NCBI GenBank assembly: GCA_963514005.1
Contig: OY740787.1
Span: forward strand, 69,440,001-69,504,000
Source: Raja brachyura
Taxonomy: Eukaryota
Direction: 5' to 3'
DNA length: 64,000 nucleotides
The notes under the pieces are model-generated. The model ran no database searches, was not told the DNA's origin, and was given only the letters and a program-made list of their open reading frames with translations. This document shows positions 2,034-3,345 of this stretch, in pieces. Position 1 is the stretch's first letter; the number at the start of each line of letters is the position of its first letter. A program made the translations under genes and the position numbers.

Positions 2034-3345
2034 ATTGGCCAGTCAGATCACATGCCTGACTCGTGTGTGGCTAAAACGACGCTGTAAAAGTTAGTGTTTT
2101 GTGTAAAGCTGCGGTCTACTGTACACGTATATCAGCAAATCTCGTAAAACCGACAATAAAATTCTAATACTACAAATCACTCGGCAAACTGAAGACTTCT
2201 AGGTTCCAATTTATTCTTTTCCGCTTTACAGGTTGGAGGCTAAAGCAGAGCCGACAGTTGTCGAATAGCCTTCCATTTTGCCGTTAAACTTTACACAACC
2301 GGCGATTAAGCCACATTTAAACTTCAGCAGGACCGGCGCGCAAGCCCCATATAAATGCGCAGCACGGGAATAGACGATTTTTGATGTCCACCTCTATGCA
2401 CAAATTACAATGTCATGGTAAGGTTTAACAAAACAAAACGATGAGAGCAAACAGGAAACGATTCTGGGGAGGGGGAGGAAAAACATACCTCTACCAATGT
2501 TATGCAAACAACTAAAAACACAATTGCTGGCAGTATAGAATTATTAGTAGCCGAGTCCAGACTCCACTCTGATAAGGCAATGTTGTTAAGATAACTTCAG
2601 AAACAGTTTTCAGATATGGAGCCGAATTTAGTCATAGGTTGCACAATTAGACCATACTTCTGCAATGACCAGCTTCTGCCAGGTACAGTTGCCAAATTAA
2701 ACACCAATTAACTATATCAAAACGAGAAGGGACAAAATTGCAGACTACAATTTTGTTACCATGGTTAACACAATATGTGCAATGTACCCATTAAAAAAAA
2801 GCTGGCTTCACGTTTTACGTTAAAGCAAACATATTTGATCGAATTTAAACATTCTCCGAGAGGTCATAGTCAACCAAGCAGATAAACTCCTTCAGAAGCT
2901 ACATCAATTTTACGTGAAGTAATATGAAGAATTCATTTTCGCAATTGTCTGCTCAATCCAGAGGAGTATTCTTTGGGCGATTTTTTAGCCATTTTTTTTC
3001 AAAACTTATTCTCACAATCTAATCACACCGCGCCAATAGGGTGGGCAGTGGTGCTTCCCCCAAGCGTAATTGTGATCTGAGCATTCTTACAGAAAAAAAA
3101 AACCCTATCTAAAACAATTAACCATCTTTATAATCATTTTATAAACCAAATAATCAAACATCCAGCTATGTCGCGTTTGTTGTTTTTTATGTATTGGTGG
3201 ATCAATTATTGGTCTCCGTGGCGTTGGTGTGGACAATGGTACGAGATCTGGATCTCAGCAGTGAGCTTATTAGTAGGGTTTCACTGGCGGATTGAATGAT
3301 CCAAATATCAAGTCGTGTTTTTGAGAAGAATTAACCTACAAAGGC
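2034..3345 (+). pseudogene. Putative decayed HoxD7 remnant (promoter, 5'UTR, exon-1 fragments, degenerate homeobox)
   Basis: ATTGG-N9-TCACATG promoter module at 2034-2054. Hox7-type leader CTCGTAAAACCGACA...CTACAAATCA...CGGCAAA at 2141-2188. AAGACTTCT at 2192 where ATGAGTTCT is expected. AEPT codons at 2245-2256. Homeobox-like codons at 3217-3335. Confidence 0.6.

Follow-up and report, generated by a model that had tools for sequence, protein, structure and literature searches.

Judged from its sequence, a stretch of about 170 nt downstream of HoxD8 in Raja brachyura (positions 2031–2200 of the window, the whole 64-kb stretch of DNA analysed) is very probably a relic of the lost HoxD7 gene, in which the promoter, the 5′ leader and a broken start codon can still be read. 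An earlier note on this DNA had described a decayed two-exon HoxD7; the identification as a HoxD7 relic stood for the promoter, the leader, the cluster slot and the start, and failed for the exon 1 and the homeobox at the places proposed. On balance, selection probably preserved the promoter and leader of the lost gene as a regulatory element acting at the DNA level once the gene itself had died. A further reading, advanced tentatively, is that they may have remained in the skate HoxD cluster as an orphan promoter, still active, for more than 400 million years, which would be an undescribed case of hyperconservation independent of protein and translation. The features concerned are as follows.

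50–999, + strand: HoxD8, the upstream neighbour, with two exons at about 50–476 and about 704–999 and its stop at 999; best match Pristis Hox-D8 at 97%.
2031–2067, + strand: promoter module, in three-way alignment with HoxA7 and HoxB7, with a reversed CCAAT box at 2034, CACATG at 2049 and CTCGTG at 2060.
2087–2191, + strand: paralogue of the HoxA7/HoxB7 leader, with GTGTAAA, the TATA-like TATATCA at 2128, a 15-nt core at 2141–2155 and CAAATCAC.
2192–2200, + strand: former start, AAG ACT TCT against ATG AGT TCN of HoxA7 and HoxB7 in the three-way alignment.
3008–3073, + strand: possible intron remnant (weak), a 66-nt match to part of the HoxB7 intron outside repeats.
3217–3345, + strand: the "ghost homeobox" of the earlier note, at chance level and left out of the relic.
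4006–4240, + strand: alternative site, found post hoc, that might hold the decayed intron end with exon 2; a match to the end of the HoxA7 intron precedes homeobox-like pieces in order.
10568–11700 (end approximate), + strand: HoxD5, the next intact gene downstream.

The window contains the HoxD cluster with HoxD8, D5, D4, D3, D2 and D1, all on the + strand, and the relic occupies the group-7 slot on the sense strand between the HoxD8 stop and HoxD5. Neither YPWM nor WFQNRR was found between these two genes, indicating that the intact exon-1 frame and homeobox exon of a group-7 gene are absent there. Both exons of HoxD8 showed 0 differences from Amblyraja Hox-D8, 1 from Rhinoraja and 6–10 from eight ray and shark entries, as counted for 11 of the 30 members of the homologue cluster, which places the animal among the skates. 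A search of the whole genome for homeoboxes recovered HoxA (contig C2), HoxB (C34) and, on a small contig, a single HoxC6-like homeobox, with only two group-7 homeoboxes among the matches; the HoxA7 and HoxB7 of the same genome, taken from its HoxA and HoxB clusters, were used as the comparison sequences. Between the group-8 stop and the CCAAT box lie about 1.0 kb in HoxD and about 1.4 kb in HoxB; the interval that separates the start codon from the following shared element measures about 2.6 kb in HoxD, about 1.6 kb less than the 4.2–4.3 kb of HoxA and HoxB. Further along the window, HoxD2 (44433–45881), a gene reported from cartilaginous fishes only, is intact and carries an extended acidic C-terminus.

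The comparison of 991–10560 with the genome's own clusters by blastn yielded, microsatellites aside, three paralogous segments: the region upstream of HoxD5, 4679–4896 and 2087–2199. The last of them matched the HoxA7 leader with 70% identity over 114 nt (E 2e-11), and 2097–2199 matched the HoxB7 leader with 68% over 104 nt (E 5e-7), both matches lying just upstream of and across the start codons of these genes. The local-alignment scores of the leader, 3744 for HoxA7 and 3088 for HoxB7, were reached by none of 200 dinucleotide shuffles (null maxima 1574 and 2068). The resemblance to the HoxB7 leader that the earlier note had pointed out was thereby borne out, and the alignment with shuffled controls that it had proposed put the leader above background without likeness to a Hox8 3′ UTR, the HoxB8 3′ UTR giving no blastn match to 2031–2199. 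Real sequences scored equally low as controls, with maxima of 1692 (HoxA7) and 1772 (HoxB7) among 112 tiles of 2.5 kb from Hox clusters, and of 1807 and 1754 among 322,681 bases from 79 unrelated loci in metagenomes. These 79 loci, obtained by searching metagenome contigs with the HoxD8 homeodomain (best identity 87%; by identity, no vertebrate group-8 gene among them), serve as a negative control only; the leader pattern itself had 0 matches in the metagenome contigs. In a look-up of sequencing runs, 20 rows from 9 studies contained some of 1950–4950, 9 of them at least half of its words and six a small share, and no RNA run was among those listed; these rows do not enter the evidence. When 15 Hox leaders were scored against the relic, HoxA7 reached 4112 and HoxB7 3512 and the remaining 13 at most 1522, so that the similarity is specific to group 7.

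The alignment with HoxA7 runs colinearly for about 170 nt from 2031, by the reversed CCAAT box, to codon 3 at 2199, and the similarity between paralogous clusters is above chance for 2031–2199, as is characteristic of paralogous conserved non-coding elements. The relic is 61% identical to HoxA7 (106/173) and 62% to HoxB7 (100/162), as against 71% (118/167) between HoxA7 and HoxB7; the deficit of about 10 points fits a relaxed constraint. It keeps 85 of the 115 columns in which HoxA7 and HoxB7 agree, with 26% lost, and in the 47 columns where they differ it sides with HoxA7 in 20 and with HoxB7 in 15. In addition, a published HoxB7 5′ UTR primer (PMC3038165, Table 1) shares 20 of 23 letters with the relic by eye, which independently places the core in the HoxB7 5′ UTR. 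The 15-nt core occurs exactly four times in the 2.7-Gb genome, including HoxA7, HoxB7 and the relic; its reversed control occurs 8 times, and the 15-mer alone is therefore not rare. No group-7 leader was detected at the fourth copy, which has no flanking match, or on the HoxC6-like contig.

The letters and peptides quoted in the earlier note were all present, including the module at 2034, TATATCA at 2128, the 15-mer at 2141 and AAG ACT TCT at 2192. Of the features of a CCAAT/E-box promoter, the relic retains TATATCA, the CCAAT box and the first of the E-box-like hexamers, CACATG, whose letters are the same as in the genome's own HoxA7; in the second E-box a single letter has changed, CACGTG having become CTCGTG. 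Taken alone the promoter module is weak, with 14/200 (HoxA7) and 6/200 (HoxB7) shuffles scoring as well, and it is colinear with the leader in one alignment. The ATTGG..TCA(C/T)(A/G)TG module also precedes HoxD4 (19927) and HoxD2 (44244), as the earlier note had seen, as well as the genome's own HoxA7 and HoxB7, and it recurs at 4798; being common to several Hox promoters, it is no marker of group 7 by itself. The mutated start codon was confirmed, AAG standing at 2192 in the alignment with HoxA7 and HoxB7, and the first ATG after it, at 2355, opens only 9 codons. Gene-specific homology in the syntenic slot (leader, codons 1–3) is thus combined with a disabling change (AAG), as in a unitary pseudogene.

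An AATAAA at 2155–2160 lies inside the conserved leader, is missing in HoxA7 and HoxB7 and may be a late poly(A) signal for HoxD8. Within 2205–2423, inspection by eye showed an acceptor-like pyrimidine tract that ends in AG at 2231 and, at 2418, a donor-like GTAAGG; the 186 nt between them contain stops in all three frames and are possibly a non-coding exon derived from the old exon 1. RNA folding gave z-scores of 0.13, −0.35 and −0.25, that is, no fold signal; the covariation term was positive (+0.45, from 3 sequences with low power) and gave no support for a covarying fold, and an Rfam search of 1000–4700 returned no family at gathering score, one match having 26.5 bits (gathering score 76). 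The kept blocks are likely to be short DNA motifs rather than an RNA fold, with a putative role at the DNA level.

No comparable signal was obtained for the coding part. The peptides that the earlier note had read as Hox7 exon-1 remnants do exist (ILFRFTG at 2213, in the frame of 2192, AEPT at 2245 and NIPLPMLC at 2482), as do its homeobox pieces RG at 3217, RIE at 3288 and RRI at 3324; as remnants they did not exceed chance. The exon-1 DNA alignment was equalled by 124/200 (HoxA7) and 12/200 (HoxB7) shuffles, the best HoxB7 alignment lying elsewhere at 2922–3003. Frameshift-aware protein alignment of exon 1, for which a positive control scored 345 versus about 30, was matched by 8/60 (HoxA7) and 53/60 (HoxB7) shuffles over 2185–2600 and by 44/60 and 21/60 over 2150–4700. 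The 45 nt past codon 3 were equalled by 142/500 (HoxA7) and 348/500 (HoxB7) shuffles, and the similarity ends at codon 3. An exon-1 remnant at 2192–2510 was consequently rejected, the DNA, protein and post-start tests all being at shuffle level.

The homeobox proposed at 3217–3345 fared no better. With a profile of 10 of the genome's own homeoboxes, nhmmer found no match at this place, the best score within 400 nt being −1.4 bits (E 0.32), and none below E 0.88 over 1001–10500; a query of intron end plus exon 2 on 3100–3500 was equalled by 100/100 (HoxA7) and 56/100 (HoxB7) shuffles. A homeodomain protein on 3150–3400 was equalled by 20/60 shuffles. A DNA profile of groups 5–8 was reached by 3/100 shuffles when confined to 3150–3400 and by 47/100 over 2200–4700, and its scoring piece ends at 3367, beyond the pieces noted before. 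The spacing from RG to RRM is 147 nt in HoxA7 versus 107 nt here, so that a deletion of about 40 nt is needed to fit a homeobox, and the chained score of 1724 lies below the real-tile mean of 2296 (the site being shorter than a tile). This candidate was also rejected, with nhmmer, shuffles and chained score at chance. Across the interval, alignment, nhmmer and profiles detected no recognisable remnant of exon 1 or homeobox, the post hoc lead at 4006–4240 being weak. The claim that promoter and leader are better kept than the coding part accordingly held, no coding part being detectable.

Two weak candidates lie further downstream. The match at 3008–3073, which came from one of the 12 parts compared, scored 2090, above all of 200 shuffles (null maximum 2054); an equally high score occurred in 4 of 114 real tiles, and the HoxA7 intron gave no match. 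It is tentatively regarded as a possible remnant of the HoxD7 intron. At 4006–4072 a match to the HoxA7 intron end was equalled by 5/100 and 1/60 shuffles over 2.5 kb, followed by homeobox-like pieces at 4113–4182 (nhmmer E 1.2) and another ending at 4240 (70/100 shuffles over 2.5 kb, 6/100 locally). Nine of 115 real tiles, each of them antisense, attained the chained score of 4006–4240 (2682), and none of the 47 sense-strand tiles did. Having been found post hoc, this stretch is an unproven lead that might represent the decayed intron end and exon 2 of HoxD7.

The age of the relic bears on how its conservation is to be read. Silent sites between the clusters are saturated, fourfold-degenerate homeobox sites agreeing in 9/50 (A–D), 15/61 (B–D) and 17/62 (A–B) cases (18–27%). 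Since the relic keeps its 85 columns while silent sites are saturated, the D copy appears to have been under constraint during a large part of the period after the duplications, be it in the lifetime of the gene or later. HoxD7 is not known from any jawed vertebrate, and its loss would be more than 400 million years old. The gene content of HoxA and HoxD is reported as unchanged across sharks and rays (10.1101/2025.06.08.657570, in the part cited), the Hox14 pseudogenes are the only two named in the cited part of the chimaera Hox inventory (PMC3707753), and HoxD7 is listed as missing in human and mouse; together these reports suggest that the loss is probably very old. Drift over such a time would probably exceed 0.5 substitutions per site, as judged from the saturation.

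HoxA7 or HoxB7 was then decayed neutrally in silico with 40 runs per setting, a simulation in which the modern genes stand in for the dying one and indel rates are assumed. The observed leader scores corresponded to 0.2–0.3 substitutions per site, and at that level the homeobox was found in 40/40 runs and exon 1 in 78–100%. A homeobox score as low as the observed one was common only at 0.7 or more substitutions per site, where 0/40 leaders reached the observed score; from 0.5 substitutions per site upward, 0/40 simulated leaders held it. Uniform neutral decay that spares the leader would thus also spare the homeobox and exon 1, which argues for constraint after gene death. Two explanations are left, a deletion of the coding part and a selection that went on acting on the leader when the gene was dead. 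Moreover, 12 tests in the HoxA8 and HoxD6 slots revealed no relic (best 5/40 shuffles), indicating that leftovers are not the rule.

The main rival to a selected element, which appears unlikely, is a functionless leftover, in which the HoxD7 coding part was deleted and the promoter and leader drifted slowly in a low-rate lineage. It agrees with the interval being about 1.6 kb shorter than in HoxA and HoxB, because the missing stretch may be the deleted coding part, which would cancel the contrast with the homeobox; the end of the similarity at codon 3, the altered second E-box and the lost 26% of shared HoxA7/HoxB7 columns point the same way. However, 2.5 kb still lies 3′ of the start, with the two weak colinear intron-like matches, and a slow drift sits poorly with saturated silent sites and with the failure of all 40 simulated leaders to keep their score at 0.5 or more substitutions per site. 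The loss is also old, as the unchanged HoxD content in sharks and rays implies (10.1101/2025.06.08.657570, in the part cited). An RNA-level job, improbable on the present evidence, would assign the stretch to a long HoxD8 3′ UTR or read-through RNA, either as a poly(A) signal (AATAAA at 2155) or as a splice acceptor (2205–2231). The relic does begin about 1 kb past the HoxD8 stop, the AATAAA is not shared by HoxA7 or HoxB7, and the pyrimidine tract with its AG at 2231 looks acceptor-like by eye; yet four earlier AATAAA sites are available (1305, 1579, 1657 and 1720), a poly(A) signal would not account for a colinear similarity that extends over 170 nt and takes in CCAAT and E-box, and the folding signal is absent, as is any Rfam family at gathering score in 1000–4700.

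It is very improbable that the stretch is a later copy of the HoxA7/HoxB7 leader, by gene conversion or insertion, or a cluster-wide element that never had a gene of its own. Gene-less elements common to the four clusters are indeed known (PMC3595034, in the part cited), but the relic lies in the exact group-7 slot at near-equal distance to HoxA7 and HoxB7 (61% and 62%; 20 versus 15 of 47 columns), and the match stops on codons 1–3 of the Hox7 reading frame. A two-exon pseudogene that is still legible, with exon 1 at 2192–2510 and a homeobox at 3217–3345, retains hardly any probability: the quoted peptides are there and the group 5–8 profile gives 3/100 when confined to 3150–3400, whereas the whole-interval tests are all at chance and the chained score falls short of the tile mean, by which this possibility is largely refuted.

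For the favoured reading, a regulatory element kept after the death of HoxD7, a mechanism can be sketched. A CCAAT-binding factor and a bHLH factor would act at the CCAAT/E-box module, and posterior-Hox/Cdx-type factors might bind the TCGTAAAA core, which resembles posterior-Hox/Cdx sites. In its simplest form the element would be an orphan promoter that fires a non-coding sense transcript or a long alternative transcript; otherwise it could be a distal promoter or a shared element for the neighbours HoxD8 and HoxD5–D3. In mouse, the CAAT box and E-box module drives Hox promoters, and Hoxa7 lost promoter function in reporters without both E-boxes (10.1101/2022.02.10.479744, in the part cited); in human, the antisense RNA HOXD-AS2 spans the D4-D8-D9 region according to the cited passage (PMC8293171). 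If true, the element would be the physical trace of a Hox gene otherwise inferred only from the two vertebrate genome duplications. It would also provide a natural experiment on the disputed cause of Hox 5′ leader conservation, translation control or promoter DNA. A leader that outlived its reading frame points to a DNA-level function, and the blocks common to the D relic, HoxA7 and HoxB7 mark the letters that carry it. Empty Hox slots might be searched with paralogous promoters and leaders rather than homeoboxes.

Hox pseudogenes, a pseudogene with working cis-elements and inter-cluster elements are already described. The chimaera Hox14 pseudogenes in HoxA and HoxB (PMC3707753), the caecilian psiHoxD12 (PMC4470032) and the bichir HoxA7 pseudogene (PMC1845163) are likewise relics of lost genes in the syntenic slot, as the cited parts describe them; their genes survive in other jawed vertebrates, whereas HoxD7 is reported in none within these sources, and here what can still be read is just the promoter, the leader and three codons. 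Medaka psi-hoxa2b is also a dead Hox gene whose cis-elements still function (PMC5831782, in the part cited), but it keeps a 138-residue N-terminal frame, is transcribed and originated in the teleost duplication, unlike the HoxD7 relic, which has no start codon. The paralogous conserved non-coding Hox sequences (Matsunami 2010, cited in PMC3595034) similarly owe their inter-cluster similarity to the two genome duplications according to that citation; the HoxD7 relic differs in that it comprises the 5′ UTR and proximal promoter of one particular gene that was lost and stops at the start codon of that gene, and that list may include it. The hyperconserved Hox leaders (Akirtava 2022, 10.1101/2022.02.10.479744) share, in the part cited, the CAAT box beside an E-box, a TATA-like element and the explanation of conservation by promoter function, but they precede working genes. 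As no reading frame follows the relic, translation control cannot explain conservation past the death of the gene. No published HoxD7 relic was found in the literature searched; footprint tables (Kim 2000, Prohaska 2004, Ravi 2009, Amemiya 2010, Matsunami 2010) may list the element unnamed.

Several other loci were met in the course of the comparison. The region upstream of HoxD5 (10360–10555) is 76% identical to its HoxA5 and 71% to its HoxB5 counterpart, unlike the leaders of HoxB8 and HoxD8, which gave no significant alignment. The segment at 4679–4896 is a non-coding element with the CCAAT/E-box module, matching its counterpart between Hox7 and Hox6 in HoxA with 72% of 168 nt (E 1e-21) and that in HoxB with 69% of 203 nt (E 4e-22); presumably it is the known element common to all four clusters. 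Alignment tests found no Hox6 leader or exon remnant after it. A HoxC6-like gene stands alone on the 38-kb unplaced contig C1630 (L017:1147–1560 and L010:7100–7460), with an open exon 1 carrying YPWM, an open homeobox exon, splice-like ends and a repeat-rich intron of about 35 kb. The only match of its exon 1 is Heptranchias Hox-C6a (34%, E 6.5e-10), with a score of 173 against 93 and 101 for the genome's own HoxA6 and HoxB6, and its homeobox is the only HoxC-like one among 38 genome matches. The contig may be contamination; the intron repeat tested matched only C1630 in the genome. The HoxC cluster is reported to be wholly absent from skates (10.1101/2025.06.08.657570, PMC9605692, in the parts cited), and the C1630 gene, if it is the skate's own, would be an exception to that absence.
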